64,000 nucleotides of DNA, taken from positions 62,001-126,000 of the IMG/VR virus record IMGVR_UViG_3300036770_003021; one strand, written 5' to 3'. The position numbers and the translations under genes were made by a program. The stretch comes from an uncultured virus (IMG/VR IMGVR_UViG_3300036770_003021) (Duplodnaviria > Heunggongvirae > Uroviricota > Caudoviricetes). The notes beneath the pieces are model-generated. The model was not told the origin of the DNA. It made no database searches and saw only the letters and a list, made by a program, of their open reading frames with translations. Position 1 is the first letter of the stretch; each line of letters begins with the position of its first letter. This document shows, piece after piece, positions 48,763 through 62,959 of the stretch.

Positions 48763-50547
48763 ATGAATGATATGAATTATACTAAAGAGTTATATACTCA
48801 ATTTTTAAATGAAGCTGGTTTTTTTGATAAATTAAAAGGATCTGTAGGTTTGGGAGGTAAAAAACAATTGTCTTCTAATGATCTTCAGATATTAGAACAA
48901 AATATAAATTCCCTACTAACCAATATCGCAAATGAAATTGGTTCGACCAAAGAAAATCTTATTAACGACTTAACAAATGGCCCTAGTAAAGATTTAGTTA
49001 CGCCAGAAATAATTCAGTACGCAACACAATTAACAAACTTATTAAATAAAATCAAATCAGTAGCCGGAACCGCAGGCACTACAGGTACCGCAGGCACAAC
49101 AGGTACAACAGGTACAACAGGTACAACAGGTACAACAGGTACAACAGGTACATCAGGCACTACAGGTACAACAGGTACAACAGGCACTACAGGTACAACA
49201 GGTACAACAGGTACATCAGGCACTACGGGTACAACAGGTACAACAGGTACATCAGGCACTACGGGTACAACAGGTACAACAGGTACATCAGGCACTACGG
49301 GTAGATCCGAAAGACCTGGATATCAAACTAAACAAATTGATGATTTAAATTTTGGTGATGATATTGGTGGTGGTACTATACTAAAACAAATAAATGTAAA
49401 TAAAATAAAACAAGATTTTGATAATTTATACAACAATTTGCCTGTAGATGCGAAGAATGTTTTAAATAATATAACAAATGATAGCAAAATATTACCTAAA
49501 AACATACAATTGCCTATTAGACCTCCTGTCATAACAGAAATAGATGAATTATCTTATTGGGATGATACTAATAAAAAACAAGAATTTATAAACAAGTTTG
49601 AAACAATAACTAACTCAATTGTATCGTCTTTAGGTATTAAACCATATGAACATAAAAAACTTTATATTATTTTACATAAAAATGGTATTGGTGATATTTT
49701 TAATAAATTATTTGCAGCATATATTGCATTAAAAGCTAATAAACCTATAAAAGATGCTTTTACATTAACAGGCACAACAGACACTTCAGGCACTACTGGC
49801 ACTACAGGTACAACTGGCACTACTGGCACTACTGGCACTACTGGCACTACTGGCACATCAGGTACAACTGGCACAACTGGCACTACTGGCACAACTGGCA
49901 CAACTGGCACAACTGGCACAACTGGCACATCAGGTACTACTGGTACTACTGGTACTACAGGTACTACAGGTACATCAGGCGTAGATGAAGATATGTTAAC
50001 CACGGACGAAATAAATAAATTCGGAGCTTATTATTCACAATTAATAAGACTTCAATCTGAATTTGAAAAAAATCTTGGTAAAAATTTGCAAACAAATAAA
50101 GATGTAAATAAATACTTTACTACTTTAAAAAACACATTGGGATCTTTAAAACTACTTGATTTTATCTCAATAGAAAACAAACCTATAGCTAAAAAATTAA
50201 AGAAAAAATTTATTAAAAGATTTTTGTGGGAACTAAATAATACACCATCTATATCACAAGTTAAAGATTTAATAGGAAAGATAAATGAACAAGAATCAGT
50301 TGGATCGGGAAATACATCAACCAATATATTGGCACAATCTACATCTATAATCGATGTTATAAAGAAAAGTTTACCAGCTATGGTAATGTTATTAAAAGAA
50401 CTTTCCAAAGTCAAAATGTCTACACAAGAAGACAAAATGTTGATGGGCATTTTAAAGAAGTTTTTAAAAGCAGTTGTTAATAAGAACACACAAGATTTAG
50501 TAATAGATCCAAAAGTGAAAAGATCAATCGATTCATTATCAAAATAA
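48763..50547 (+). CDS. protein with two collagen-like (Gly-Thr-Thr/Ser)n tracts
   Basis: 594 aa ORF with GTT/GTS triplet runs. Confidence 0.75.
49066..49303 (+). repeat. 9-bp coding tandem repeat (GGTACAACA)n
   Basis: Directly visible. Confidence 0.95.
49771..49980 (+). repeat. 9-bp coding tandem repeat (GGCACWACT)n
   Basis: Directly visible. Confidence 0.95.
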
Positions 50548-50605
50548 TATTATACAAATATAATAACTGTGACACATCATTATTGAATATGTATCTAAAA
50601 ATATT

Positions 50606-50890
50606 ATGAGTGAAGTTACTAAATTTACAGAACAAGAAATGCAAGAAATCGCAATCGTTCAATCCAAATATCAACAAAAAATATTTGAACTTGGTCAATT
50701 GCAATTAGAAGAAATTGAATTGGAACAAACAAAAACAGAATTAACTGAACGTAGATCAGCTATTCTAACAGAGTGGAAAGACATTCAAAAACTAGAAGAA
50801 AACTTACTAAATAGTCTGGCTACAAAATATGGAGATGGTAGTCTTAATTTAAAAGATGGCACATTTAAGCCAGCTCCAAAAGAACAATAA
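50606..50890 (+). CDS. hypothetical coiled-coil protein
   Basis: 94 aa; KYGDGSLNLKDGTF. Confidence 0.7.
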   Translation: MSEVTKFTEQEMQEIAIVQSKYQQKIFELGQLQLEEIELEQTKTELTERRSAILTEWKDIQKLEENLLNSLATKYGDGSLNLKDGTFKPAPKEQ

Positions 50891-50892
50891 TA

Positions 50893-50922
50893 AAAAAGCC
50901 GGTCTTAATTGACCGGCTTTTT
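50893..50922. terminator. bidirectional terminator between convergent genes
   Basis: AAAAAGCCGGTC-TTAATT-GACCGGCTTTTT. Confidence 0.85.
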
Positions 50923-50925
50923 GTT

Positions 50926-51111
50926 TTACTTAGTTGGATCACCTATAGACGCATCTTCGACAATCGCTTTAATTTCATTTTCGATTTCTTTCATGCGTTC
51001 TTTGTAGCCAGCAGCTACATCTTTAAAATCTTTCTTTACATGCAAAAGATTTTCGGTTAGTTCATATACTTTCTTTTCGGCTTCAGCCTTTGTTAATTTA
51101 ATATTACTCAT
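50926..51111 (-). CDS. hypothetical protein
   Basis: 61 aa ORF. Confidence 0.6.
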   Translation of the reverse strand: MSNIKLTKAEAEKKVYELTENLLHVKKDFKDVAAGYKERMKEIENEIKAIVEDASIGDPTK

Positions 51112-51136
51112 AACTTTAATATATATTTAATATACA

Positions 51137-51358
51137 ATGAATGACGTAAATTTTCAAGATATAAAAATTAAAGATCACCATATAACAATCTGGGCTGATA
51201 GATTTATTGTTTTAAGACACCCAGAAAAATGTGATTTATATGAAGACGAAACTTGTAGAGAGAAAATGTTAGATTATCTACAAAAAGAAGGATATATAGA
51301 TCCAGAAAAATGCAACTGTTTAGTATTTGATAGTTACATTGACTTTGAACCGCAATAA
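51137..51358 (+). CDS. hypothetical protein
   Basis: 73 aa ORF. Confidence 0.6.
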   Translation: MNDVNFQDIKIKDHHITIWADRFIVLRHPEKCDLYEDETCREKMLDYLQKEGYIDPEKCNCLVFDSYIDFEPQ

Positions 51359-51385
51359 AAAACCCCAAGCATAACTTGGGGTTTT
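51359..51385. terminator. bidirectional terminator ending the tRNA/tmRNA transcript
   Basis: AAAACCCCAAG-CATAA-CTTGGGGTTTT. Confidence 0.85.
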
Positions 51386-51390
51386 AAAAA

Positions 51391-51777
51391 TGGTGGAGAT
51401 GGCGAGGAGTCGCACCCCGCGTCCATAAAAAATTATTACTGCCAGACTACACGCTTATATATTTTATATTGTTAGGGGTTAATAATGAAAAATATCTAAA
51501 AATATTACCCTTAAGATTTACTAATATCTTGACCATTTACGCAAATCAAATATTTGGTCCAGTCCAATAATTTACACCCAACACAAATATCAGACTTCAT
51601 TGTATTGAATGTGCAACAACTTAGGCTGCAAGGGCTACAACGTCATCGTAAGAGAAGTCATAGCTAACTACGTTATCTTCAGCAGTTAATGTTTCGATAG
51701 GTGTATTAAAGAGGCCAACTATCATCCTCTACGTGCCTAACAATAGATATTTATCTATGTCAAATCTACGCATCCCC
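51391..51777 (-). ncRNA. ssrA: tmRNA; tag (A)AEDNVVSYDFSYDDVVALAA at 51621-51683
   Basis: GGGGATG/CATCTCC-ACCA acceptor with G3-U; T-arm; resume context TTAACT-GCT; ALAA-stop end. Confidence 0.93.
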
Positions 51778-51800
51778 ATAAAATTTTAAAGAACTGAAAT

Positions 51801-51874
51801 TGGAGCGGGTAGCCGGAATCGAACCGGCACATCGACCTTGGCAAGGTTGCAGGCTACCACTACATCATACCCGC
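51801..51874 (-). tRNA. tRNA-Gly(GCC)
   Basis: Manual cloverleaf, loop TT-GCC-AA, CCA. Confidence 0.92.
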
Positions 51875-51923
51875 GCTCTCTATAATATATAGTTGAAATC
51901 AATCAATATACATTAATTTAAAA

Positions 51924-51998
51924 TGGTGGACCGTAAGAGAATCGAACTCTTCCCTAAAGCTTGCAAAGCTCCCGTGCTACCACTATCACCAACAGCCC
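51924..51998 (-). tRNA. tRNA-Ala(TGC)
   Basis: Loop TT-TGC-AA, G3-U70, CCA. Confidence 0.9.
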
Positions 51999-52010
51999 AT
52001 ATCTATAAAG

Positions 52011-52039
52011 ATCTTACACCAATATATAGTGTATGTCAA
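52011..52039 (-). promoter_or_regulatory. sigma70-like internal promoter
   Basis: TTGACA-N17-TAAGAT upstream of Ala/Gly/tmRNA. Confidence 0.55.
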
Positions 52040-52049
52040 ATCAAAAATT

Positions 52050-52267
52050 CAACCCTATCCTATCTGGATCAGATTCGTCCGGGTCAGACATACAGGGGTG
52101 TATCGTGTCCCTCACGCTGTTGGAGTCAATCCCCAACACGCACATTGTTCTATCCCAGACACCTTGGCGGTTTTATGGGCATATTTAACCCACAGATTAT
52201 TAGCCGAACACAGCCGTTGGTTATTGTTTCGGACCTAGCCAAGTTCAAACCTCTACCGTTGTCTGGT
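52050..52267 (-). ncRNA. unidentified structured RNA (~215 nt)
   Basis: GC-enriched; nested helices CCAGACA/TGTCTGG, CTTGGC/GCCAAG, CCGAA/TTCGG, TGTTGG/CCAACA. Confidence 0.55.
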
Positions 52268-52275
52268 ATATAAAA

Positions 52276-52351
52276 TGGTCGGAATGACAGGACTCGCACC
52301 TGCAACCTCCTAGCTCCAAACCAGGCCGTCTACTATTGACATTACATTCCG
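52276..52351 (-). tRNA. tRNA-Pro(TGG)
   Basis: CCTGG-TT-TGG-AG-CTAGG, CCA. Confidence 0.88.
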
Positions 52352-52358
52352 ATTAAAT

Positions 52359-52434
52359 TGGCAGGGGATAAGGGAATCGAACCCCTACAGACGCGGGTCC
52401 AAAGCCCGCCGCGCTACCACTACGCAAATCCCCA
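52359..52434 (-). tRNA. tRNA-Gln(TTG)
   Basis: GCGGG-CT-TTG-GA-CCCGC, CCA. Confidence 0.9.
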
Positions 52435-52447
52435 GTTGAACTTCATA

Positions 52448-53131
52448 TTAATTTATAATAATACCATAAGATTTACACCATTTTCTCACAGCATTATCTG
52501 ACACACCATATTTTTTACCTAAACTCACCATTGTATTTTCTTTTACTTCTTTTTCCAAAATTTCTTTGGTTGGTCTATCTGTTTTTCTTTTTTCATATCT
52601 TGGTTGATGTCTCCAATCAGGATTTATTTCTGATGGTTTAATGCGGTGTTTATTTAGAGAACGACCCGCAAATGTAGATGTTTGACTATGACAATTCGGA
52701 CATAAAAATTCTAAATTTTCAATTCTATTATCATCTGATATTCCGTTTTTATGTTCTAATTGAAGAGTTAATTTTTCATTTTCCCAAATGCCATTATTTT
52801 TACATTTTGCACATTCATATTTTATTATATTAAATTTAATTAAACGTTTTTTTAAATCTGTTCTATTACAACGAGAATTTGTTGTCAATTTTTTTAATAA
52901 ATCTTCTTTTGTAACTTGTCTTGTCCAATTACTTGATTGTGTCCTAGAAAGGAAATGACTGGTATCAATTTGTAATTCAACAATTCTTTTTTTACAAGTT
53001 TTAAAATTTCCACCTTTATTTTCCATACCAAAGTGTTTTAGTAACTCAGACATAGTTTTGCTATTTTTTACTAAAGTTGTAAATTTTTCGTTTGAAACTT
53101 TCCAGATAATACTTGTTCTATTTTTACTCAT
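52448..53131 (-). CDS. HNH homing endonuclease
   Basis: CAKC, LQLEHKNG...DNRIENLEFLCPNCH, C-terminal HTH. Confidence 0.9.
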   Translation of the reverse strand: MSKNRTSIIWKVSNEKFTTLVKNSKTMSELLKHFGMENKGGNFKTCKKRIVELQIDTSHFLSRTQSSNWTRQVTKEDLLKKLTTNSRCNRTDLKKRLIKFNIIKYECAKCKNNGIWENEKLTLQLEHKNGISDDNRIENLEFLCPNCHSQTSTFAGRSLNKHRIKPSEINPDWRHQPRYEKRKTDRPTKEILEKEVKENTMVSLGKKYGVSDNAVRKWCKSYGIIIN

Positions 53132-53191
53132 ACATACATAAATATGTAAGAACAGAATGAAAGTTCAATTTTTAATATTAAATTTATTAAA

Positions 53192-53266
53192 TGGCAGGGG
53201 ATACCGGTTACGCTCCGATTCTCTCAGATTCAAAGTCTGATTTGCTACTATTACAATCAATCCCCG
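53192..53266 (-). tRNA. tRNA-Gln(TTG), second copy
   Basis: TCAGA-CT-TTG-AA-TCTGA, CCA. Confidence 0.85.
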
Positions 53267-53277
53267 GTTACTAAAAA

Positions 53278-53352
53278 TGGTGCAGTAGGAGAGAATTGAA
53301 CTCTCATTTCAAGTTTGGAAGACTCACGTAATAGCCATTATACCACTACTGC
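53278..53352 (-). tRNA. tRNA-Gly(TCC)
   Basis: TGAGT-CT-TCC-AA-ACTTG, CCA. Confidence 0.88.
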
Positions 53353-53437
53353 ATTTTAATAAATTATTAGATGTTCAGTCATCAAATATTTGATGTGTAC
53401 TATGAACCACGGACAGGTAATCTAATTTCTCATAGCG

Positions 53438-53528
53438 CGGAGGCGAAGGGTGCTGCCCCCTCAGTGGCTTTTTAAACCACGGCAATTTAGCAAATTGCTG
53501 TAGAAACCTAACTATCTACGTCACCTCC
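53438..53528 (-). tRNA. tRNA-Ser(GCT)
   Basis: GCAAT-TT-GCT-AA-ATTGC, long variable arm, no encoded CCA. Confidence 0.82.
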
Positions 53529-53612
53529 ATAAAATCTTTGACAATCTCCGATTTCTTCACGGGACGATATTATCAGTCCTCGGCTCCATTGTCAAGTGGA
53601 GTTGTATTAAAA

Positions 53613-53704
53613 TGGCGGTTGATGTCCGTACTGCCCGGACCTTCGTCTTTCAACGAACCTAGTTTTCAAGACTAGTGCAGCCAGCTTATATCTGCCTATC
53701 AACC
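53613..53704 (-). tRNA. tRNA-Ser(TGA)
   Basis: CTAGT-CT-TGA-AA-ACTAG, long variable arm, CCA. Confidence 0.87.
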
Positions 53705-53712
53705 GTATAAAT

Positions 53713-53797
53713 TGGTGGGCATAGAGGGACTTGAACCTCCACGGATTTCTCCCCGAGCTTCTAAGACTCGTGCGTCTGCCAATTTCGCCATATGCCC
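53713..53797 (-). tRNA. tRNA-Leu(TAG)
   Basis: CGAGT-CT-TAG-AA-GCTCG, variable arm, CCA. Confidence 0.92.
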
Positions 53798-53803
53798 ATA
53801 AAA

Positions 53804-53877
53804 TGGTCGGCCACGCCAGAATTGAACTGGCTCCACATGCTCCCAAAGCACGGATGCTACCGTAACACCTGTGACCG
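53804..53877 (-). tRNA. tRNA-Pro(TGG), second copy
   Basis: CGTGC-TT-TGG-GA-GCATG, CCA. Confidence 0.87.
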
Positions 53878-53899
53878 TTTGATTTGTTAATCAAAAAAA

Positions 53900-53974
53900 T
53901 GGTAGGCGGTAAAGGATTTGAACCTCTGGCCTTGACCGTGTAAAGGTCCTGCTCTTCCACTGAGCTAACCGCCC
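53900..53974 (-). tRNA. tRNA-Val(TAC)
   Basis: GACC-TT-TAC-AC-GGTC, CCA. Confidence 0.93.
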
Positions 53975-54122
53975 ATTTAAAATTTGTTGGATTGTGTACC
54001 TATCGTTGGTAGCCCTTATTTCTAAGGACCGGCGTCTCCTATTCCTTGGCTCGCCTCTACGGTTTTGATCTCAGTTCAAACTTTCTAAAGACTGTTGATG
54101 TTGTTTACATCGTTATATTTCT

Positions 54123-54150
54123 AATTTACCACACCTTCTCATTTTGTCAA
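54123..54150 (-). promoter_or_regulatory. sigma70-like promoter heading tRNA array 1
   Basis: TTGACA-N10-GTGTGG-TAAATT. Confidence 0.7.
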
Positions 54151-54162
54151 CACCTAAAAATC

Positions 54163-54225
54163 AAAAACCCGTCATTCTTTTTTTGAAGTGACGGGTTGGT
54201 TCTTTTAGGAGCAAACAACCTCGCC
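54163..54225 (-). promoter_or_regulatory. attenuator 1: antiterminator (54216-54225 with 54190-54198) overlapping terminator (54163-54197)
   Basis: GGCGAGGTTG pairs with CAACCCGTC; alternative AACCCGTCA(C)TTC/GAATGACGGGTT plus U-run. Confidence 0.7.
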
Positions 54226-54226
54226 T

Positions 54227-54280
54227 TCAACTTCCGGATGGGAGTTGACTGGCTTGACTAGGTTGTGAAATTAAATTCAT
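54227..54280 (-). CDS. putative leader peptide 1, MNLISQPSQASQLPSGS
   Basis: 17-codon ORF just upstream of attenuator hairpins; codons match array 1 amino acids. Confidence 0.7.
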   Translation of the reverse strand: MNLISQPSQASQLPSGS

Positions 54281-54327
54281 ATTGTTACTAATATATAGTA
54301 TTCAAAATACAAAATCAACAAAATTTT

Positions 54328-55236
54328 TTAAAAAGTTTTAAATCCACTCAAATCGAACTCGTTAACTTTATATCCAACACTTAGTGATGATATTGTATTA
54401 TTTATTTCGGTTATATAACTAGGAATACTTGTTCCAACACCAGCAGAACTTCCTAATGTCATATACCAACCACCTATCAATACTATTTCATTATTAATAA
54501 TAGTAGAGACAATATTGCCGCTGTCACCACCAATTAAAGCTTCAAAATATTGCGCTCTATTAGGATCTTTTGATAGATTTATTACTGTGTTATTTGATCC
54601 ATATGAACCATTAATACCTCCAAATTCTCCAATCAAAGCTTTTCTTTCTTGATCAGAATATAGTATTGGGAAATTAATTTTGTTCACATCAAAATATTTG
54701 GTGTAATTAGCTGGCAATACACTGTATACTTTTAATGAATCATCAACTTCTTTATCCAACTCACCAATTAAAATGTCTGTATTACCCACTCGTTTTGTTT
54801 TGACAACATTGTAAGTAAGTGTAACGTTATTATTATTTACAAAGAAAATAAGAAATGGAGTTGATGAATAAGGCACGTGATTTGCAAATAATACATGTTT
54901 CTTAGTTATAAGTGTTCCGCCGCCAACTCCTCCTAAAGGTACAATACAAGAAGAATATCCCGTCAAATTAATACTCTTTGCCCAACAATTATTGTTTCTA
55001 GGCCAATTATAAGGATTAACATATGGAGTTAAAATATTCTTGTCTTTCTTTTCTTTAATTAAATTGTCAAAGTTAGAATTGATATGTGACAACAAATCCA
55101 ACTTTACTACATTTGTTGTTCCAGTTATTCCTGATGATGATGCTTGTGATGATAAAGCATCTTTCTTTGCCTGATCAATTATTTTTTGTAACAAAATTGC
55201 GTGTTCCGCTAATAAACTTTCCATTATAGTAGGCAT
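54328..55236 (-). CDS. trypsin-like serine protease
   Basis: GTLITKKHVLFANH, DILIG, GGDSG catalytic triad motifs. Confidence 0.75.
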   Translation of the reverse strand: MPTIMESLLAEHAILLQKIIDQAKKDALSSQASSSGITGTTNVVKLDLLSHINSNFDNLIKEKKDKNILTPYVNPYNWPRNNNCWAKSINLTGYSSCIVPLGGVGGGTLITKKHVLFANHVPYSSTPFLIFFVNNNNVTLTYNVVKTKRVGNTDILIGELDKEVDDSLKVYSVLPANYTKYFDVNKINFPILYSDQERKALIGEFGGINGSYGSNNTVINLSKDPNRAQYFEALIGGDSGNIVSTIINNEIVLIGGWYMTLGSSAGVGTSIPSYITEINNTISSLSVGYKVNEFDLSGFKTF

Positions 55237-55278
55237 AAAATAAATCTTTCTTTATTTATAAATATGCGCAAAATAAAA

Positions 55279-55302
55279 AACCCGCTTATTTCTAAGCGGG
55301 TT
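55279..55302 (-). terminator. intrinsic terminator
   Basis: AACCCGCTTA-TTTC-TAAGCGGGTT plus U-run on minus strand. Confidence 0.8.
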
Positions 55303-55327
55303 CACATTTGTAATTCTACAATTACTA

Positions 55328-56026
55328 TTAGAAGGTCAATTTCAAACCACCAGAATATACAATGTCACCACTAAATTCACGGGTTGCCCAATTGTACTTG
55401 GTAGTATTAAAGTTGTTGTCATACCATCCAGCACTTACAAATGGAGTAAATACACCAAATGAAGTTTCAAACGGACGAGTCAATGCCAACTTTGCATTTA
55501 CAGCGGTATAATCTTCTACCTTACCATACTCAACTCCAGGAGTTACAACAAATCCAAATGGAAGTTTTTGAGCACGTTCTGCACCAACAAATACACCACT
55601 TTGCTTCAAGTCTACATCATAATATCCACGAACATATGGTGTAACAATCTTGTTTGGTAGTGCCAACTTAACACCAAATTCAGTGCTGTTGGGAATACCA
55701 AAGTTACCAGCTTGGTGACGAGTTACAGTAGTATCCAATCGTGCGGAAAATACATCCTTCCACACATTTACTTCTTTTCCAGCACCCAAAGTCCAATGAG
55801 ACTGATCTAGGTCGCCATTGGCCAAAAGAGTACCACCCAAATATACATCCGCATACTTTAAACTCTTTACAGCACCTACACCCACAAATGGCGTGCCTTC
55901 AGAACGAGCTACACCGTTAACGATGTACTGGTTGTTATAACCAGCCTCTACTGAGATGTTAGAATTATCTCCAGCAGTAACTGCTAGAGCGGTCAACAAT
56001 GACACTAATACTAATACTTTCTTCAT
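55328..56026 (-). CDS. outer-membrane beta-barrel protein (porin-like)
   Basis: Signal peptide, amphipathic beta-strands, C-terminal GGLKLTF BAM-type signal. Confidence 0.75.
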   Translation of the reverse strand: MKKVLVLVSLLTALAVTAGDNSNISVEAGYNNQYIVNGVARSEGTPFVGVGAVKSLKYADVYLGGTLLANGDLDQSHWTLGAGKEVNVWKDVFSARLDTTVTRHQAGNFGIPNSTEFGVKLALPNKIVTPYVRGYYDVDLKQSGVFVGAERAQKLPFGFVVTPGVEYGKVEDYTAVNAKLALTRPFETSFGVFTPFVSAGWYDNNFNTTKYNWATREFSGDIVYSGGLKLTF

Positions 56027-56164
56027 ATTTTTAACTATCCTTTTTGTTTGTTTTGTTATTTACACCACACTAATTCAGATTACAAAAAAATAACCATCTT
56101 TAATGCGTTTTGGGACCGTCCCAAATATTGTTGTATATAAATAGTTTTATATTTTTATAATAAA

Positions 56165-56488
56165 TTATTTATTTACCGCTGACTTTTTGAGTTTTTTATA
56201 CAAAGCTTTGTCTTTCTCAGGCAAATAAACATACGACGCTTTTTGTGACTTTTTATTTTCACCCAAAACACTAAGCGTATCTTCACTTACCTCCAACACT
56301 TTACCAATAGCATTTTTAATAAACCTAAAACTATCAGTACCAGATATTTCTATACAAATGCCGTAATTTAAACTTTTATATTGTACATCAGTAGCTCCAT
56401 AAAAAGAACACAAAATGTCTTTAATTTTAGCCTTCTTGTCTTCACTAAAGACCAGATTAGCCATATCAATTTTACTTAATTCATTCAT
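56165..56488 (-). CDS. hypothetical protein
   Basis: 107 aa ORF. Confidence 0.6.
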   Translation of the reverse strand: MNELSKIDMANLVFSEDKKAKIKDILCSFYGATDVQYKSLNYGICIEISGTDSFRFIKNAIGKVLEVSEDTLSVLGENKKSQKASYVYLPEKDKALYKKLKKSAVNK

Positions 56489-56499
56489 ACTATACTTTT

Positions 56500-56527
56500 A
56501 TTATACTTGTTAATGTCACATTGTCAA
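56500..56527 (-). promoter_or_regulatory. sigma70-like promoter
   Basis: TTGACA-N16-TATAAT. Confidence 0.7.
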
Positions 56528-56589
56528 TAAAAAATAAAACGATTAATTTTTACATTAATCGTTGTACTTTATATAAATTTATTTAATTT

Positions 56590-57003
56590 TTACTTTGATT
56601 TTTTCATCAACTGCAACGCCTTTTTTAACTTTGGGTCTTGTTGAGCTTTTGATTGTAACCAAGCATTGTAATTGCTTTTTTCACTACGAGCGTCTTCACT
56701 GTCTCTATATAGTTTAGCATATTTCTTTACAATGTCTCTAAATGGATCACCACTTTCTTTAAGTCTGGCAATTTTATCTTTCAACATCTGTTTGTATTTC
56801 TCAATAGAACCATAATCTTTTGCTCTACTTGGATCAGGATTTTTTAACAAATTTTCCAAGTCTTTGATGTCTTTAGCTTTATCAGTTTCAGATAAAGTAG
56901 CAGTCAATTTATCACTCTCTACTTCAGCTGCATTGTCAAAATCTTCAACTAAAATTTCCTTGGTCAAACTTTTGATTAACTTTTTTAAATCGTTCTTGGT
57001 CAT
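56590..57003 (-). CDS. hypothetical protein with head-protein-type leader
   Basis: MTKNDLKKLIKSLTKEILVE. Confidence 0.65.
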   Translation of the reverse strand: MTKNDLKKLIKSLTKEILVEDFDNAAEVESDKLTATLSETDKAKDIKDLENLLKNPDPSRAKDYGSIEKYKQMLKDKIARLKESGDPFRDIVKKYAKLYRDSEDARSEKSNYNAWLQSKAQQDPKLKKALQLMKKSK

Positions 57004-57038
57004 ATGTTATAAATATAAAAATTGTAAAATAGGTACAC

Positions 57039-57209
57039 TTATTTTTGTTTTATGCTTTCACTCCAACCAACTCTGTGTTTGGTCATCCAATCTACCAACG
57101 CTTGTTCAAATCCTATATCGTTTCCAAGTTTTTCACTCTCTATCCATTTATGTTTTTCAATTTCTTTTTTCAATTCCAAAAACTTTTGATAGAGATTACT
57201 TTTTTCCAT
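57039..57209 (-). CDS. small DUF4032-like protein (56 aa)
   Basis: Manual translation MEKSNLYQKFLELKKEIEKHKWIESEKLGNDIGFEQALVDWMTKHRVGWSESIKQK. Confidence 0.7.
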   Translation of the reverse strand: MEKSNLYQKFLELKKEIEKHKWIESEKLGNDIGFEQALVDWMTKHRVGWSESIKQK

Positions 57210-57271
57210 ACCCAAATAAATAGAAAATAAAATGGAGTATTGTGTAATATACGAATTAATTTTAAAATTTT

Positions 57272-57362
57272 TGGAGCACGATCAAGGTTACGCTCCTTGC
57301 ATATGTATTTTCATACAATGATGTTTTGCAGACATCTCAGTTCTCTAGCTCTGTCATCGTGC
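57272..57362 (-). tRNA. tRNA-Cys(GCA) with long variable arm
   Basis: GATGT-CT-GCA-AA-ACATC, U73, CCA. Confidence 0.8.
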
Positions 57363-57373
57363 TTTATATAAAA

Positions 57374-57448
57374 TGGTTGTCACGGTAGGACTTGCACCCA
57401 CAATCTTCTGGGTCAGAACCAGCTGCGATTCTATTACGCTACGTGACA
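57374..57448 (-). tRNA. tRNA-Gln(CTG)
   Basis: CTGG-TT-CTG-AC-CCAG, U1-A72, CCA. Confidence 0.75.
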
Positions 57449-57450
57449 AT

Positions 57451-57525
57451 TGGAGCCTGCAATTGGTTTTGACCCAATATCTATCAATTTACGAAATTGA
57501 TGCTTTACTATTAAGCTATACAGGC
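57451..57525 (-). tRNA. tRNA-Thr(CGT)
   Basis: TCAAT-TT-CGT-AA-ATTGA, CCA. Confidence 0.85.
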
Positions 57526-57531
57526 ATTAAA

Positions 57532-58335
57532 TTATTCGTCCGCATTTGAACCAAAAATACGCTTCCAAAAACCCACTTTTTTAGGTTTTTCCTCTTGTTT
57601 TGATTCATCTACTTGATTAATTTCTTTTGATAAATTATTTGAGTGCTGATTTGAAATTTTCATCAAAACTTCCGCACCTTTTGGCCACTCACCCAATTTG
57701 TTTTTAAATTCATAACCACTTTTTTTCATATTTTGTCTCAAATTTTGAGCCAAAAGTGCATTTTCTCTCTTCAATTCCTCTATAATTTTTTCATACTCAA
57801 CAATCTTGTTCTTCAAGAAATCTCTTTCTTTTGTAAGCTCTTCAATCTTAGCCACAAGCTCATTTTGATCTTTATCAGTCTTTGCAACTTTAAGCTCATC
57901 ACTCAAATCTACGATCTCTTTAGTCATTTTTACAAGCGTATTACGCAATGATTTTAAATCAGATTCAAGCGCAGATTTTTCTTGGGTCAAATCTTTAATC
58001 TTTATGTCTTTTTCATCAGATGATAATTTTAACTTCTCAGTAATATTCTGTAACTGAGTTAAATTAGTATGCAATATACTCAATTTATTGTCATAACTCT
58101 TCAATAATGAAGTCATTTCCACATTTTTTTGATTTAAATTGGTAATCAATAAACTTTGATTTACAACAATCTCAGACTGATTAGCAACTTTTTTAGACAA
58201 AACTTTATTGTCTTTATTTAATGAACTAAATAATGCGTATAATCCAAAAATTACCAATACAATTACAGCAATTATTGAATATAATACCTTTTTATTAGTA
58301 AACGAAAATGTTTGGGGAGAGTTTGTAGATTCCAT
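57532..58335 (-). CDS. membrane-anchored coiled-coil protein
   Basis: N-terminal TM helix, long heptads, C-terminal GFWKRIFG amphipathic helix. Confidence 0.75.
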   Translation of the reverse strand: MESTNSPQTFSFTNKKVLYSIIAVIVLVIFGLYALFSSLNKDNKVLSKKVANQSEIVVNQSLLITNLNQKNVEMTSLLKSYDNKLSILHTNLTQLQNITEKLKLSSDEKDIKIKDLTQEKSALESDLKSLRNTLVKMTKEIVDLSDELKVAKTDKDQNELVAKIEELTKERDFLKNKIVEYEKIIEELKRENALLAQNLRQNMKKSGYEFKNKLGEWPKGAEVLMKISNQHSNNLSKEINQVDESKQEEKPKKVGFWKRIFGSNADE

Positions 58336-58388
58336 AAATTTATTTTATTATATATATAATACCCTCACACTTAAATATATTTTTAAAA

Positions 58389-58462
58389 TGGAGCCTCCAG
58401 CAGGTACCGCCCCTGCGTTTCATCATTACCAATGATGTGTAATACTTTTATACTATGAAGGC
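58389..58462 (-). tRNA. tRNA-Thr(GGT)
   Basis: CATCA-TT-GGT-AA-TGATG, CCA. Confidence 0.87.
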
Positions 58463-58467
58463 AAAAA

Positions 58468-58545
58468 TGGCACACCCGGCAGGATTCGAACCTGCAATCT
58501 TCTCGTTAGAACCGAGTCGCTTTAGTCCAGTTTAGCTACGAGTGC
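58468..58545 (-). tRNA. tRNA-Arg(TCT)
   Basis: CTCG-GT-TCT-AA-CGAG, CCA. Confidence 0.88.
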
Positions 58546-58687
58546 GTTAAAATTACCCACCACTGTTCGAACAATGGTGGCACCAACACGATAGTTTGCT
58601 AATAGGCTTATTCGGTTTGTGTTCGTCGTCAACACAAATCCCGCTATCTCTTTTACCACACGACCTGCTTCATAGAGTTGGTGAAAA

Positions 58688-58761
58688 TGGTTGACCGTGC
58701 CGGTTACGCTCCGGCGTAGGACGATTATCAGTCGTCTATTCTGCTATTGAATTAACGGTCA
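58688..58761 (-). tRNA. tRNA-Ile(GAT)
   Basis: GACGA-CT-GAT-AA-TCGTC, CCA. Confidence 0.87.
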
Positions 58762-58768
58762 ATTGAAA

Positions 58769-58844
58769 TGGCGAGGTATATGGGTGCTGCCCCCACTATC
58801 TTTTCCGTGACAGGGAAATGAGTCTGCTGTTCCTCTTATACCCC
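58769..58844 (-). tRNA. tRNA-Asp(GTC)
   Basis: TTTCC-CT-GTC-AC-GGAAA, CCA. Confidence 0.87.
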
Positions 58845-58935
58845 AAAAAATTGGTGCTGTGCTCTCCACGCCGTCTCTGTGTTTTACCGATTGTACCGGT
58901 CGGCAGTCACTTATGGGGCCAGTTACCCATTAAAT

Positions 58936-59014
58936 TGGTGGAGCCAGTGGGTAATGCTCCCACACGAATCGTCCGGTTAAAAGCCGGCTGCCCGTCTATT
59001 GTGGCTTTGACTCC
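58936..59014 (-). tRNA. tRNA-Lys(TTT)
   Basis: CCGG-CT-TTT-AA-CCGG, CCA. Confidence 0.85.
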
Positions 59015-59108
59015 ATAAATTGGTGGGTCTTTCCCTCTGTCACTCTTTAATCCCTAGGATTTCAACCCCGGCAAATATCGGTTACGAGTTACCGCTAGAC
59101 TTATAAAA

Positions 59109-59184
59109 TGGTGGAATCATCGGGATTTGAACCCGAATCACGATATTAAGAGTATCGTAGTCTAGCCAATTGACTTATGATTCC
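59109..59184 (-). tRNA. tRNA-Lys(CTT)
   Basis: CGATA-CT-CTT-AA-TATCG, CCA. Confidence 0.92.
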
Positions 59185-59226
59185 ATTATTAAAAATTTCT
59201 TCTTACATTGTCAACGAACTATAATC

Positions 59227-59254
59227 ATCTTACCACACTTTATAACTTCGTCAA
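59227..59254 (-). promoter_or_regulatory. sigma70-like internal promoter in tRNA array 2
   Basis: TTGACG-N10-GTGTGG-TAAGAT. Confidence 0.7.
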
Positions 59255-59272
59255 CAGCTTTTTAAAAAAACT

Positions 59273-60022
59273 TTAAACGTTACTTTGTTTCTTTGGATAT
59301 GGTTGAATTGACTTAATCAATCCACCCAATATTCTTTTACCATCACTAGAATTTTGTCCGGATAAAATATAAATGTACATATGTTTTCCAGTAGCAGTTC
59401 TTATTTCAAATGGACTATTAGGATTGGTTCTTGCATCATTTGCTGCATCTTTACCAGTTTCAAAACCATACTTCTTTATTTGTGGTAATCTATACACCCA
59501 CTTGTTTTCTTTTTTATCCCACAAACGTTTTGTATCTTTACTCTTGCCTAAATAAATTGCATTTGTTGCTTGATATATAGATCCAGTATGTCCCTGTCCA
59601 CTATCAGCCCGTGTAATAACAACCTTTAATTCGGGATAATCCTGTTTAATCTTTTTATTACCCAAACCAATTACATACGACGCCAAGTTGCTTAACTCAG
59701 GTATTTGTTTTGCCTCAGGTTTCAAATATAATCTCAATAACTCAAATACTTCATTCTTTTGCAATAAACTGTTGCCCTCTGCATCTACAGCTATTTCTTC
59801 ATAATCTTGTGGCTTGGTGGTTTGTCCATAAACAATCACTCCTACCATATCCACATTACCATCTGTCTTCTTGTACATCACACCATAATTAGCAGCCACC
59901 GCCGTAGGATATGTCTTTAAATAATGCTGCTTAATAAAATTCAATACTTCAGATTTACTCTTGGGTTCCAAATATACACTATCTTTCAAACCCTCCAATA
60001 TTAATTCTTTCAATTTAATCAT
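59273..60022 (-). CDS. Mom-like (GNAT-fold) DNA modification protein
   Basis: FIKQHY, ELLRLY, ADSGQGHTGSIYQATNAIYLG. Start moved to MIKLKEL (60022). Confidence 0.75.
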   Translation of the reverse strand: MIKLKELILEGLKDSVYLEPKSKSEVLNFIKQHYLKTYPTAVAANYGVMYKKTDGNVDMVGVIVYGQTTKPQDYEEIAVDAEGNSLLQKNEVFELLRLYLKPEAKQIPELSNLASYVIGLGNKKIKQDYPELKVVITRADSGQGHTGSIYQATNAIYLGKSKDTKRLWDKKENKWVYRLPQIKKYGFETGKDAANDARTNPNSPFEIRTATGKHMYIYILSGQNSSDGKRILGGLIKSIQPYPKKQSNV

Positions 60023-60055
60023 ATGATATAAATATCTGCATGCATCGTCAAAAAA

Positions 60056-60131
60056 TGGTCCCAATTGTTGGTTCCGCCCCAACCTCTCAAGTTCTTCAGA
60101 CTTGCGCTTTCACTAGGTTAGCTTAACTGGG
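60056..60131 (-). tRNA. tRNA-Phe(GAA)
   Basis: CAAGT-CT-GAA-GA-ACTTG, CCA. Confidence 0.85.
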
Positions 60132-60232
60132 ATTATAAATCTATTGACAAGTCAAAGGAATCGAACCTTTTCGGAACAGAGTCGCCCGCTCCTTTACCAC
60201 GCCCTGCGCACTAGCACCTGTCAAAAACTAAA

Positions 60233-60333
60233 TTGTGTGGTTGGAATCGAACCAACGGCCCGTGCTTATTCACACTTTTACGGTGTCATTTACCATCATA
60301 GTGAGCACTGATCTACCCCTGAACTACACACAA
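60233..60333 (-). tRNA. tRNA-like gene with 37-nt expanded anticodon loop; identity undetermined
   Basis: Acceptor TTGTGTG/CACACAA, D-arm, GTGCT/AGCAC stem, T-arm GTTGG-TTCGATT-CCAAC. Confidence 0.65.
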
Positions 60334-60340
60334 TCTAAAA

Positions 60341-60727
60341 TTAAATTTTGTTTTTTGTTTTTTGCCATTTTTCTACACAATATTCGTGGTATTCTTTTTT
60401 GCAAATTTCACATCTACATTTATGATTTATATAACCAGATTTACCGTGTTTCCAAGATTCTCTATTAATTAAATAATCTTTGTTATCTAAACTTTTCTTC
60501 AAATGACACGGATAACATAATAATTGACATTTGTGTATTTCTCTTACAAAGACTTCTATATTTGTTGTAAACATAGAAGATATTTCATTCACTTTCGTTC
60601 TTGGATCTATATGGTCAAATTGTAAATCTTTTTCAGAATTACATTTACAACATTTACCTCCAAGCATTTCAAGTCCAAGTTGTTTTCTTTTTTTTCTATA
60701 GTTTTGTATATATTCTTTTGTAGGCAT
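60341..60727 (-). CDS. HNH endonuclease
   Basis: CCKC, LQFDHIDP, CQLLCYPCH, HG..GY..HKCRCEIC. Confidence 0.85.
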   Translation of the reverse strand: MPTKEYIQNYRKKRKQLGLEMLGGKCCKCNSEKDLQFDHIDPRTKVNEISSMFTTNIEVFVREIHKCQLLCYPCHLKKSLDNKDYLINRESWKHGKSGYINHKCRCEICKKEYHEYCVEKWQKTKNKI

Positions 60728-60807
60728 AAATTTCTCCTACAAATAAATATCATTGAATTAAACTAAAGTTACAAAAAGTTACAATGTTGTAATTGTTGTT
60801 AATAAAA

Positions 60808-60893
60808 TGGTGGGGTATGTAGGTAATGCTCCTACCCAGCCCGAAGGCAACGGTTTTACAGACCGTTCTGCGTCTTTATCAGTATAATACCCC
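60808..60893 (-). tRNA. tRNA-Tyr(GTA)
   Basis: ACGGT-CT-GTA-AA-ACCGT, variable arm, CCA. Confidence 0.87.
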
Positions 60894-61031
60894 AAAAAAT
60901 ATATAATGTATGATGAACAATGAAATTATTTAAATTTCTTAAGGCACTTTATGTTCATACTATTGCAATTTGATCAACTGCCTAACCCTCAATCAGCATA
61001 CTCCATACATCATATAAAACTATTGAAAGAG

Positions 61032-61154
61032 CTCCAGAGGAGGGTTTCGAACCCCCAACCCTGCGGTTAACTTTGGCCTTGTGAGATTTGCACTCTCTAT
61101 TAAATAATACTTTATGGCCCACAGCCGCATGCTCTACCATTGAGCTACTCTGGA
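61032..61154 (-). tRNA. tRNA-Asn(GTT) interrupted by a 51-nt insertion in the anticodon loop
   Basis: Canonical Asn body; removing 61072-61122 restores TGCGG-CT-GTT-AA-CCGCA. Confidence 0.8.
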
Positions 61155-61162
61155 ATTGAAAA

Positions 61163-61240
61163 TGGCTCCAGCCCTTGGCTCCGCCCCAAGCTCGACACGG
61201 TTTAACAGACCGCCGGTTACACTAAGTTTCCTTGACTGGA
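61163..61240 (-). tRNA. tRNA-Asn(GTT)
   Basis: GCGGT-CT-GTT-AA-ACCGT, CCA. Confidence 0.82.
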
Positions 61241-61384
61241 ATTAAAAATTAAATTTGAAAGTGTGGATTCTCTTACCACCACTTAGGGCGGACTGCCCAG
61301 TTCTGACTTCAACAGACTCTCTTTCAAAAAATGTTTACTGGATTTCACTATGCTTGTTCCACCTACTAACTATAACCTCGTCAG

Positions 61385-61414
61385 ATTATAACCTTCAATG
61401 TCTATCAGTGTCAA
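61385..61414 (-). promoter_or_regulatory. consensus sigma70 promoter inside array 2
   Basis: TTGACA-N18-TATAAT. Confidence 0.55.
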
Positions 61415-61431
61415 TACATTACTTACTACTT

Positions 61432-61508
61432 CAACTATTGATTCAGATTCGAACTGAATGACTACTGCATACAGCGCAGTTGCTTTACCAATTAAGCTAC
61501 GTTCGTTG
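61432..61508 (-). pseudogene. tRNA-like element with intact D, anticodon and T arms but disrupted acceptor stem
   Basis: TAGCTTAATTGGTAAAGC; ACTGC-GCTGTAT-GCAGT; TTCAG-TTCGAAT-CTGAA; no CCA. Confidence 0.6.
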
Positions 61509-61531
61509 CCTTCACCTAATGTATTTAAAAA

Positions 61532-62203
61532 TTATTTATATACTCTACCTTTAACATATCCGTTTGTCAAGTATGTTTGTAGTTGTTCTTTTTTAATTTT
61601 AAGATTTTTATTTGTTTCAGAATGATATACCCAACAAGTTCCATATTGGGAATTTTTTGCACCGGATTGTGCTACTTTTAGTTTTTCTCCGATTTTCTTT
61701 TTTGTATCTTCTTTATGTTTTTTACCGGTCCAATGAAAAGCATTTTGTTTCCATTTTTCCTTTAAAGATGTTGATACTTTCTGTTTCCATTCTTCAAATA
61801 ATCCTTTTTCAATTAAAAATTCTTTTATCTTATCTCCTGTCAACAAATTCTTTTTCCTAATCTCAATATTTTTATGATGTATATTTTTTCCAGATTCGTT
61901 TATATAAGAATAACCGCCATAACCACCTTCCATTATATTGTAAGTATTATTCGATTCAATAAATAATTGGTTTACAATTTCTCTTTCTTTGGAAAACATT
62001 TCTTCAGCGGTATCAAATATAAATAAAATTTCTTTAATAAAATTTTCTTCACCATATTTTTGTATTGCTCTTTTTAGAAGTTTTCCAGAACCCATATAAT
62101 TGTCCTGCAAATTTTTTGTTTTATGCATTCCAATGTAAATTTTTTGGTTCAATTTATTTGTAATCTTATATATCGTGTATTTATATTGAGCGTTCGTGTC
62201 CAT
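61532..62203 (-). CDS. GIY-YIG (Seg-like) homing endonuclease with NUMOD3-like motif
   Basis: TIYKITN...YIGMH, YMGSG, YNI..GG, GKKHKEDTKKKI. Start moved to MDTNAQ (62203). Confidence 0.9.
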   Translation of the reverse strand: MDTNAQYKYTIYKITNKLNQKIYIGMHKTKNLQDNYMGSGKLLKRAIQKYGEENFIKEILFIFDTAEEMFSKEREIVNQLFIESNNTYNIMEGGYGGYSYINESGKNIHHKNIEIRKKNLLTGDKIKEFLIEKGLFEEWKQKVSTSLKEKWKQNAFHWTGKKHKEDTKKKIGEKLKVAQSGAKNSQYGTCWVYHSETNKNLKIKKEQLQTYLTNGYVKGRVYK

Positions 62204-62252
62204 AATAATAAATATAGACACGAACTCAAATAATATTATTTTTTTTGAAATG

Positions 62253-62327
62253 CATCCACCGTAAGAATCGAACTTACCCACGGGCTTTTGGAGAGCCTGT
62301 CGCCTAATCCTTGGAACATTGGCGGAT
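62253..62327 (-). tRNA. tRNA-Trp(CCA)
   Basis: GGCT-CT-CCA-AA-AGCC; full CCA not encoded. Confidence 0.8.
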
Positions 62328-62337
62328 ATACTATAAA

Positions 62338-62414
62338 TGGCAGTCGCATTGGGATTTGAACCCTATTCTCCATCTTGAGAGGATGGTGTCCTATCACACA
62401 TAGACGATGCGACC
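62338..62414 (-). tRNA. tRNA-Glu(CTC)
   Basis: CCATC-CT-CTC-AA-GATGG, CCA. Confidence 0.88.
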
Positions 62415-62519
62415 GTTAAATATTGTGACGAGATTACCCCAGTAGGAATTACCCGGCATGCAAGGGCTCCTTCAATCTTTTGGGTTTAAGTCTCTTTGTT
62501 GCCCTCGTCACTTTTAAAA

Positions 62520-62597
62520 TGGTAGCCCCACGGGGAATTGAACCCACGATTTGTAGATTGAAAGTCTACCGTCCTATACCCATTAGACGATGAGGCC
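62520..62597 (-). tRNA. tRNA-Glu(TTC)
   Basis: GTAGA-CT-TTC-AA-TCTAC, CCA. Confidence 0.9.
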
Positions 62598-62608
62598 ATT
62601 ATATAAAT

Positions 62609-62686
62609 TGGTGCTTCAGTGAGGATTCGAACCCCAAACTCAACGTTCGTAGCGTTGCGTGATAAATCCATTTTCACCACCGAAGC
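62609..62686 (-). tRNA. tRNA-Arg(ACG)
   Basis: CAACG-CT-ACG-AA-CGTTG, CCA. Confidence 0.9.
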
Positions 62687-62692
62687 ATAAAT

Positions 62693-62768
62693 TGGTTACC
62701 CCACTTGGATTTTCACCAAGGTTGATGTCTCAGAGAACACATCCGTCCTAAACCTAGACGATAGGGTA
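62693..62768 (-). tRNA. Glu-type tRNA with 10-nt anticodon loop
   Basis: D-arm CGTCTAG..AGGACG as in the Glu tRNAs; GATGT-GTTCTCTGAG-ACATC; CCA. Confidence 0.6.
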
Positions 62769-62776
62769 ATTAAAAT

Positions 62777-62852
62777 TGGGGTGAATAAGGAGATTTGCAC
62801 TCCCTTTGATTGCTTCACAGGCAATGCTCTTACTACATAGAGGATATTCACC
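62777..62852 (-). tRNA. tRNA-His(GTG)
   Basis: ATTGC-CT-GTG-AA-GCAAT, G-1/C73, CCA. Confidence 0.87.
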
Positions 62853-62864
62853 ATTACTATAAGC

Positions 62865-62946: not shown

Positions 62947-62959
62947 GTTAAATTTTCTT

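Follow-up and report, generated by a model that had tools for sequence, protein, structure and literature searches.

The window analysed here is a stretch of 64,000 nucleotides (nt), positions 62,001 to 126,000 of the 134-kb record IMGVR_UViG_3300036770_003021 of an uncultured virus of the Caudoviricetes, a giant phage from freshwater; the record is estimated to be 48% complete and the genome has a G+C content of 34%. On its minus strand a putative leader-peptide attenuator, present only once in the 134-kb record, lies ahead of an array of tRNA genes and a transfer-messenger RNA (tmRNA) gene, in the order promoter P1, open reading frame (ORF) of 17 codons, terminator, promoter P2 and array. 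An initial annotation made from the DNA letters had already proposed such an attenuator, and all its statements about the sequence itself hold on this strand. The following features make up the switch and its immediate surroundings, with amino acids given as aa:

54328 to 55236, minus strand: gene for a 302-aa protein taken from the ORF list, upstream of and outside the switch
54290 to 54318, minus strand: promoter P1 from the scan for sigma70-like sites, with TTGATT (54318-54313), a 17-nt spacer and TATATT (54295-54290)
54227 to 54280, minus strand: leader ORF, 17 codons and TGA, MNLISQPSQASQLPSGS, with the ATG at 54280 and the TGA at 54229-54227
54260 to 54266, minus strand: region 1, ACAACCU, codons 5-7, pairing with region 2
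54227 to 54248, minus strand: hairpin 1, UCAACUCC...GGAAGUUGA, made of the last ORF codons including the stop, with conserved pairing
54214 to 54225, minus strand: region 2, GGCG-A-GGUUGUU, the 5' arm of the antiterminator, from folds and alignment
54189 to 54198, minus strand: region 3, CAACCCGUCA, shared by the antiterminator (as its 3' arm) and the terminator (as its 5' arm), invariant in 47 of 47 aligned sequences
54156 to 54197, minus strand: intrinsic terminator, AACCCGUCA / UGACGGGUU and a U-run, from folds and alignment
54123 to 54150, minus strand: promoter P2 from the site scan, with TTGACA (54150-54145), a 16-nt spacer and TGgTAAATT (an extended -10) ending at 54123
51391 to 53974, minus strand: array 1 from ARAGORN, Rfam and folds, with Val TAC, Pro TGG, Leu TAG, Ser TGA, Ser GCT, Gly TCC, Gln TTG, an HNH-like ORF, Gln TTG, Pro TGG, Ala TGC, Gly GCC and tmRNA
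51391 to 51777, minus strand: the tmRNA that closes array 1 (Rfam, 104.9 bits)

The ATG of the leader stands 9 nt past the -10 hexamer of P1 and is followed by the codons AAT TTA ATT TCA CAA CCT AGT CAA GCC AGT CAA CTC CCA TCC GGA AGT. As these 17 codons fall below the floor of 20 aa, the leader is absent from the program-made ORF list; a 27-aa ORF with a TTG start at 54147-54230, which overlaps the terminator in another frame, was treated as spurious. In the terminator stem AACCCGTCA (54197-54189) pairs with TGACGGGTT (54174-54166) and is followed by TTTTTGATTTTT up to 54156, and because the stem is interrupted it had been overlooked by a simple terminator scan. P2 lies immediately behind it and the tRNA array begins about 140 nt beyond, at 53974. 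The antiterminator arm GGCGAGGTTG is found at 54225-54216, one base past the leader stop, just where the initial annotation had placed it, namely directly after the TGA and inside the footprint of a terminating ribosome.

The pairing of these regions was followed in 47 distinct aligned sequences reaching from the ORF to the terminator. The 151-nt stretch around the ORF folds with a z score of -5.1, and none of 200 shuffles was equally stable. With its 9-bp G+C-rich stem and U-run the terminator is 100% paired and almost invariant, has ΔG values between -13.7 and -16.1 kcal/mol and appears in the minimum free energy (MFE) structure of the full-length leader. The 1:2 helix (ACAACCU with AGGUUGU), 97% paired and nearly invariant as well, is the upstream helix that had been missing from the initial annotation and completes a four-region set of the trp type. 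The antiterminator 2:3, which shares CAACCCGUC with the terminator, is 83.6% paired and contains a 1-nt bulge; folds and alignment both confirm the proposed hairpin set in which antiterminator and terminator compete for the terminator 5' arm. Its core GGUUG-CAACC is invariant, and past one bulged A a variable linker of 6 nt pairs into the CGUC of the terminator arm. Pair 59-92 of this extension is kept in 47/47 sequences (GU in 27, AU in 20), 61-90 in 45/47, 60-91 in 40/47 (CG in 27, UG in 13), 58-93 in 20/47 and 57-94 in 7/47. All 14 linker types lengthen the antiterminator into the CGUC(AC) of the terminator arm (ΔG -7.0 to -12.9), natural linkers being on average 2.6 kcal/mol better than random ones and the linker of the window being equalled by 2.5% of random linkers. 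The support for the antiterminator thus consists of conservation and one-sided changes and includes no double covariation; true compensatory changes among the helices are confined to hairpin 1. This hairpin is 88.7% paired, and both partners have changed at two of its pairs: one turns from CG to UA in 4 sequences, and the other, mismatched in most sequences, is UA in 6 and CG in 5. An alternative register adds 5 double changes, and the hairpin might possibly act as a pause site for the polymerase. RNAalifold, applied to the alignment alone, returns the 1:2 helix, hairpin 1 and the terminator. Shuffle and slide controls set the structures apart by the percentage paired and not by double-change pairs, the covariation tests being underpowered.

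The order in which these helices can form was analysed with growing and partly masked RNAs. For a nascent RNA reaching to nt 80, in which region 3 is not yet out, the MFE structure is the 1:2 helix with hairpin 1 at -19.1 kcal/mol, and once region 3 has emerged the antiterminator state has -20.4 kcal/mol versus -19.1 kcal/mol for the 1:2 state. In the folds with a ribosome mask the antiterminator is the MFE structure of the nascent RNA: with 30 nt masked it stays for a ribosome with codon 4, 6, 8, 10, 12 or 14 in the A site and is lost for codon 16 and codon 18 (the stop). The ribosome-free full-length RNA folds the terminator. Modelled in this way, the folding pattern would correspond to trp-type logic, with a kinetic step in the choice between the helices that we infer.

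From this geometry the following mechanism can be proposed. Transcripts from P1 would have their 5' end at the AUG or no more than about 3 nt away from it, and transcripts that come in from genes upstream may act alike. In an untranslated RNA region 1 would pair with region 2 and leave region 3 free to form the terminator with region 4, so that transcription would stop at about 54160, and a ribosome reaching the UGA would cover region 2 and likewise favour termination. A ribosome held on codons 3-11 (Ser, Gln, Pro, Ala) would instead cover region 1 and free region 2, which could then pair with region 3 as the antiterminator and allow the polymerase to pass P2 into the tRNA and tmRNA genes. Slow decoding of the leader, as it might be triggered by loss of host tRNAs, by cleavage through defence nucleases or by a mismatch in codon usage, would raise the supply of the matching tRNAs because 13 of the 16 leader codons are read by this array, and would thereby act as a feedback on decoding capacity. 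The extra transcription would go to the tRNA set that is in short supply and, for array 1, also to a ribosome-rescue RNA.

A second module of the same layout is found in the window:

63231 to 63448, minus strand: module 2 from scan and folds, with the promoter TTGACG (63448-63443), a terminator to 63270 and a second promoter (63258-63231)
63328 to 63411, minus strand: leader ORF of module 2, MKVHYTNIKRWNTFTNREDRGMAADIV, 27 codons, ahead of a Thr/His/Arg/Glu/Trp... array (array 2)

The spacing between promoter and ATG is the same as in module 1, and terminator and second promoter look homologous to those of module 1. In three variants of module 2 an antiterminator forms in the nascent RNA with the last ORF codons as its 5' arm, and in the full-length MFE structure ORF codons 3-9 pair with this arm as a 1:2 helix in addition to the terminator. 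The second module is also informative with respect to a factor-mediated antitermination, in which a protein or RNA would bind the leader without any involvement of the ribosome. Leader 1 does contain two AGUCAA repeats 9 nt apart whose nucleotides are almost invariant and which could be such a binding site, and the competing helices would serve a bound factor equally well. Yet module 2 lacks the AGUCAA repeats and forms equivalent helices, no candidate factor is known, and an Rfam cmscan of 50500-64000 with E values up to 1 gave only tRNA, tmRNA and weak unrelated matches and no leader, T-box, PyrR or other cis-regulatory family. As binding of a factor would also leave unexplained why the ATG, the frame, the stop and the distance of stop codon to region 2 (fixed at 6 nt) are conserved, we regard it as improbable.

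The two modules could also be compared for the match between leader codons and tRNAs, for which we assumed that U34 reads whole four-codon boxes, as is established for reduced tRNA sets. Array 1 reads 13 codons of leader 1 and 5 of leader 2, array 2 reads 2 and 20, respectively, and in each leader a single codon matches neither array (Fisher p = 5.5e-5 across the modules). Without the U34 assumption the corresponding numbers (array 1/array 2/neither) are 9/2/5 for leader 1 and 4/20/2 for leader 2 (p = 4e-4). Stop-free, composition-preserving shuffles of leader 1 reach a mean of 6.2/16 and none out of 20,000 reaches 13, which bears out the codon match described in the initial annotation with its extended wobble, and only 7/17 and 5/17 codons are readable in the other two frames. 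For leader 2 the shuffles give P = 0.0245 over 26 codons and 0.0014 for codons 2-19. Peptide exchanges between variants of module 2 (K/R, H/Q, N/H, N/D, R/C twice and D/C) stay within the set of its array in 7/7 cases. Module 2 thus repeats the design with a leader that is complementary to the one of module 1.

In order to find relatives we used two patterns. The first, a back-translated leader pattern, gave 23 loci and is biased to synonymous variants. The second contained only the terminator 3' arm and the second promoter and excluded the ORF; it gave 29 viral loci, 21 of them of the type described here (2 fused to a longer ORF and 2 cut by the contig end) and 8 of a second type, as well as at least 121 loci in metagenomes, some of which are unrelated G+C-rich chance matches. 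When anchored on the ORF, the mini-gene is present at at least 112 phage or metagenome loci. Among the listed loci there are 45 distinct 60-nt upstream sequences, which show the -10 hexamer TATATT in 41, the -35 hexamer TTGNTT in 37, a 17-nt spacer in 37 and a gap of 8-9 nt between -10 and ATG in 40 cases, and the sequence of the P1 spacer varies between variants while the hexamers stay. The DNA farther upstream of the mini-gene falls into 19 clusters among 111 listed loci. Relatives of the 302-aa upstream protein were found at 16 loci with 69-100% identity, and the element follows the gene in 5 of the 16; the Val-Pro-Leu... order of the array was present downstream of the cassette in 6/6 records examined. 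As the array remains constant while the upstream gene changes, the element belongs to the tRNA array and not to the 302-aa gene. The scenario of a merely constitutive terminator of a protease gene, considered in the initial annotation as the alternative, does not agree with this distribution, and the name protease itself had no other basis than a GDSG-like motif seen by eye: the 302-aa protein has no Pfam family, no PHROG and no relative in the PDB (best E 0.31). A distant blastn search of 53000-56500 against annotated phages gave only tRNA matches, in 21 records with at most 4% query coverage each.

This conservation has also to be weighed against a chance ORF with chance complementarity beside a plain terminator. 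The scan for sigma70-like sites alone is no evidence because its 32 sites equal the 32.2 expected from shuffles, and short ORFs are plentiful, with 1289 of 12-35 codons in the genome. The occurrence at at least 112 loci with varied flanks, the fold z score of -5.1, the codon match reached by 0/20,000 shuffles and the presence of the second module make pure chance extremely unlikely, and an artefact of near-identical genomes is opposed by the neighbouring protein, which is only 69-82% identical in relatives.

Whether the leader ORF might be translated can be judged from its variants. There are 21 distinct versions of 17 codons and one of 18 codons, all 22 being open, and the only indel within the ORF among the 47 aligned sequences is an in-frame insertion of 3 nt, while the loops of antiterminator and terminator do carry indels. 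Of the 22 variant codon types in the core (codons 5-17), 11 are synonymous, against about 23% expected by chance according to our own estimate. No Shine-Dalgarno sequence precedes the leader ORF, and such motifs are rare across the phage genes in general (GGAG in 3/97, AGGA in 10/97). A TATTTAT[AT] motif is located 2-8 nt ahead of 25 ATGs genome-wide, of which 21 are the starts of ORFs with 60 aa or more, and a perfect TTGACA-16-TATAAT precedes the start codon of a 107-aa ORF by 11 nt (for example at 56527-56488 in the window). Since promoter-like motifs abut ATGs elsewhere in the genome, starts with little or no 5' leader seem to be usual in this phage, and leaderless or near-leaderless mRNAs may even be the rule. 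Translation of the leader ORF is therefore plausible: the intact frame, the excess of synonymous changes and the genome poor in Shine-Dalgarno sequences speak for it, and the absence of a codon-position periodicity, described below, speaks against it.

Some relatives point to the origin of the leader, as the leader frame forms the C-terminal end of a longer ORF in five loci (56-66 aa in L142, L056, L158 and L123, and 35 aa in L128):

L142:361-540, L056:199-396, L158:37-204, L123:27-206 and L128:104-208: small protein family of 35-66 aa, M.IEKTYKLEIQGR...KEVD..., with a tail homologous to the leader

The 56-66-aa long form has no PHROG and no copy in the genome of the window. In L142 and L128 the stop lies within GTGACG, which is complementary to the CGTCAC of the terminator arm. 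From these sequences the mini-gene appears to be a shortened version of a small gene, the end of which had been coupled to the terminator before, and because the stops of the long forms sit in or next to the segment complementary to the terminator, an ancestral translation-sensitive termination is suggested. The same ORFs are also an argument for an evolutionary remnant, that is, a leftover protein tail with ordinary 3'-end hairpins and a constitutive terminator, in which the codon match would be a by-product of a disordered tail rich in Ser, Gln and Pro; furthermore, 2.6% of real-protein windows match array 1 equally well. A remnant should decay, but the start codon, the promoter at fixed distance and the open frame have been kept at at least 112 loci and in 22/22 variants. 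Neither the stops of the long forms beside the terminator-arm complement nor the equal design of module 2, for which no such history is known, fit a leftover, and we consider it quite unlikely.

More weight has to be given to an independent transcription unit, in which the approximately 120-nt RNA from P1 to the terminator would be the mRNA of a mini-protein or a dual-function small RNA (sRNA), while P2 would drive the array, the terminator would do no more than end the RNA and shield the array from it, and no regulated read-through would occur. Promoter, ORF and terminator are conserved together and P2 is located directly behind the terminator; the occurrence of a promoter after the terminator, which the initial annotation had given as a caveat, was confirmed, with P2 kept in all cassettes listed, although partly by construction as P2 had been in the search pattern. 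Both downstream sites named at that time (54123-54150 and 52011-52039) were recovered in the scan, the latter as a further promoter-like site at 52039-52011 on the minus strand. The codons TCA, CAA and AGT of the leader are nearly fixed at the nucleotide level even at many synonymous sites, which would be expected of an sRNA seed. Of the features of an Hfq-type sRNA acting in trans, promoter and terminator are present, but the conserved 5' part is mostly taken up by pairing in the 1:2 helix or in hairpin 1. The unit is also covered by RNA-library contigs: those from freshwater and riverine libraries, in which DNA may be present, span 54143-54270 across the terminator and show no ends, strand or level, and in a relative with a different upstream gene such contigs cover 54213-54330 and beyond, again with ends, strand and level not readable. 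No RNA contigs (4 runs, 90% likeness) were found on 54338-54800, which is uninformative as the gene is too diverged among relatives. What an independent unit leaves unexplained is that 14 linkers are all complementary to the terminator 5' arm, that region 1 repeats the sequence of region 3 and thereby brings 1:2 into competition with 2:3, and that the two leaders are complementary in the way their arrays are. In addition, the radical exchanges between peptide variants (S/Y, S/V, P/L and Q/L in leader 1; R/C, D/C and N/H in module 2) oppose a folded or receptor-read peptide. An independent unit therefore appears to us rather unlikely, if a serious competitor.

We lean towards a leader-peptide attenuator that would supply the tRNA/tmRNA array with additional transcription by read-through, so that the interpretation given in the initial annotation is supported, with a function that is predicted. 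Several observations weigh against this reading. From the 13 matches of leader 1, 4 depend on the four-box reading by U34 and only 9/16 codons match otherwise; codons 2-4 of the window (AAT TTA ATT) are outside the set of array 1; and among the non-synonymous variants of leader 1, 7/11 are readable by array 1 and 4/11 (AAT, TTA, TTG, TAT) are not, with Asn and Tyr of the L044 leader having no partner in the L044 array. Host tRNAs read the leader codons, too. The 2.6% mentioned above refers to 16-codon windows in long ORFs that reach 13/16, a level also reached by 12/1289 small ORFs (12-35 codons, genome), and for leader 2 the corresponding values are 3.6% of long-ORF windows and 49/1289 small ORFs; the real-protein null is inflated by low-complexity proteins like a 594-aa ORF at 48763-50547 (plus strand), which contains two long Thr-Gly-Thr repeat tracts (TGTTGTTGT...). 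Moreover, the composition rich in Ser, Gln and Pro may be inherited and not selected, as the leader is homologous to the small-protein tail. The variable ORF columns are distributed 5:10:8 over codon positions 1:2:3 and show no excess at the third position. Concerning the RNA structures, there is almost no covariation because so few changes occur in the terminator, in the core of the antiterminator and in the 1:2 helix, the counts of double-change pairs in the tests of the antiterminator and the 1:2 helix are matched by about half of the shuffles, and the conservation of the helices could instead have its cause in coding or in a bound factor. In every ribosome-free fold the terminator is the favoured structure at equilibrium, so that the choice of helices would have to be kinetic. 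P2 is a better sigma70 match than P1 and, being conserved downstream, it means that the attenuator can only add to the expression of the array and not gate it; most transcription of the array may bypass the switch via P2. The RNA contigs, finally, have invisible ends and may contain an admixture of DNA.

That the attenuator senses precisely the matched tRNAs is a step further, for which the codon match argues and about which we are somewhat more doubtful than confident. With similar reserve one might generalize that large phages regulate their tRNA and tmRNA supply by polyvalent leader peptides, each block being preceded by a leaderless test ORF made up of codons that this block can read, which in the present case would have been whittled from the tail of a small protein.

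Leader-peptide attenuation is a textbook control of amino-acid biosynthesis, with the enterobacterial leaders trpL, hisL, leuL, thrL, pheL and the multivalent leader of ilvGMEDA as examples. The phage element resembles these in its promoter-proximal short ORF, the regions 1:2, 2:3 and 3:4 with region 1 inside the ORF, a stop codon positioned such that a terminating ribosome would cover region 2 and the relation of the leader codons to the regulated product, and it is closest to the multivalent ilv leader. It differs from them as it would regulate tRNAs and a tmRNA instead of biosynthetic enzymes, draws its leader codons from 6-7 amino acids, each present one to four times, without a run of a single codon, has no Shine-Dalgarno sequence and a 5' leader of at most about 3 nt (from the predicted start), carries a second promoter behind the terminator, occurs in a phage and has no match to an Rfam leader. 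T-box riboswitches bind uncharged tRNA via a specifier loop and the T-box bulge and do not need an ORF. Like these, the phage element would couple tRNA status to the choice between terminator and antiterminator ahead of translation-related genes, but it possesses an ORF, an antiterminator with only a 1-nt bulge and no T-box match at E values up to 1. In pyrBI and pyrE of E. coli a close ribosome prevents the terminator, and there as here the position of the ribosome on the leader ORF relative to the polymerase would decide on termination; in the phage element, in contrast, a ribosome at the stop would favour the terminator, and an explicit antiterminator and a 1:2 helix are present. Full-text searches, within the part of the literature accessible to them, gave no account of leader-peptide attenuation of tRNA genes or in phages. 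If our interpretation is true, the virus would gauge decoding capacity directly and top up the matching tRNAs together with tmRNA, which bears on the question why large phages carry tRNA arrays and how they answer host tRNA depletion. Such leaders might then offer compact, codon-specific sensors of tRNA supply, and the element would illustrate in detail how a regulatory leader can arise from the terminal part of a protein gene.

The array itself was assigned by several methods. ARAGORN calls seven tRNAs (Val TAC, Pro TGG, Leu TAG, Gly TCC, Gln TTG, Ala TGC and Gly GCC), and two more at 53195-53265 and 52279-52351 were found only by Rfam, their anticodons (Gln TTG and Pro TGG, respectively) being identified by eye. 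Rfam and relaxed ARAGORN both missed the two genes for Ser tRNAs (TGA at about 53702-53612 and GCT at about 53532-53438); each of them folds alone into a class II cloverleaf with an odd T loop, and relatives have canonical Ser tRNAs at these positions. Thus, order and identities in the array list of the initial annotation are right, with the reservation that the two Ser genes rest on folds and position. Non-canonical T loops (GGCAGYA, GGAGCGUAACC, GGAGCAUUACC) were observed in many tRNA-like genes, which are missed by default ARAGORN and found only in part by Rfam:

53702 to 53612, minus strand: tRNA-like gene with odd T loop, canonical tRNA there in relatives
53532 to 53438, minus strand: the same
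53265 to 53195, minus strand: the same
about 58846 to 58772, minus strand: the same
59100 to 58770, minus strand: the same
60880 to 60810, minus strand: the same

These genes may represent degenerate copies, or else tRNAs whose T arm has been altered.

Folding of the RNAs that lie between P2 and the first tRNA gave z scores of -2.1, 0.07 and +2.05, and as shuffles do equally well this segment was dropped as a part of the switch. A conserved stretch GGTTGAAACTCYATCTG ... GGGTGTTATGCTGRAATACAGAACCCAT is located between the second promoter and the first tRNA at 63135-62990 and also at L004:1262-1400 and in many relatives; it precedes array 2 in the window and array 1 in the relatives, has no Rfam match and folds no better than shuffles. 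The arrays are nearly identical in the 6 records read. The tRNA arrays of the window include homing-endonuclease-like ORFs on the minus strand at 52448-53131, about 61535-62200 and about 60343-60726, the first of which has weak HNH Pfam matches below the cutoff, the other two being read by eye. The tag of the tmRNA reads ...AEDNVVSYDFSYDDVVALAA in the window, and the tags given by ARAGORN for relatives are AEDNVISYNFTSRDAVALAA and AEDNVISYDFSYDDVAVAA. At 62693-62768 (minus strand) ARAGORN finds a tRNA with the four-base anticodon CTCT, which becomes a Gln CTG with a 3-nt insert when introns are allowed, and at 61031-61154 (minus strand) a tRNA-Asn GTT carries a 51-nt insertion after the anticodon, which Rfam covers as one 123-nt tRNA match.

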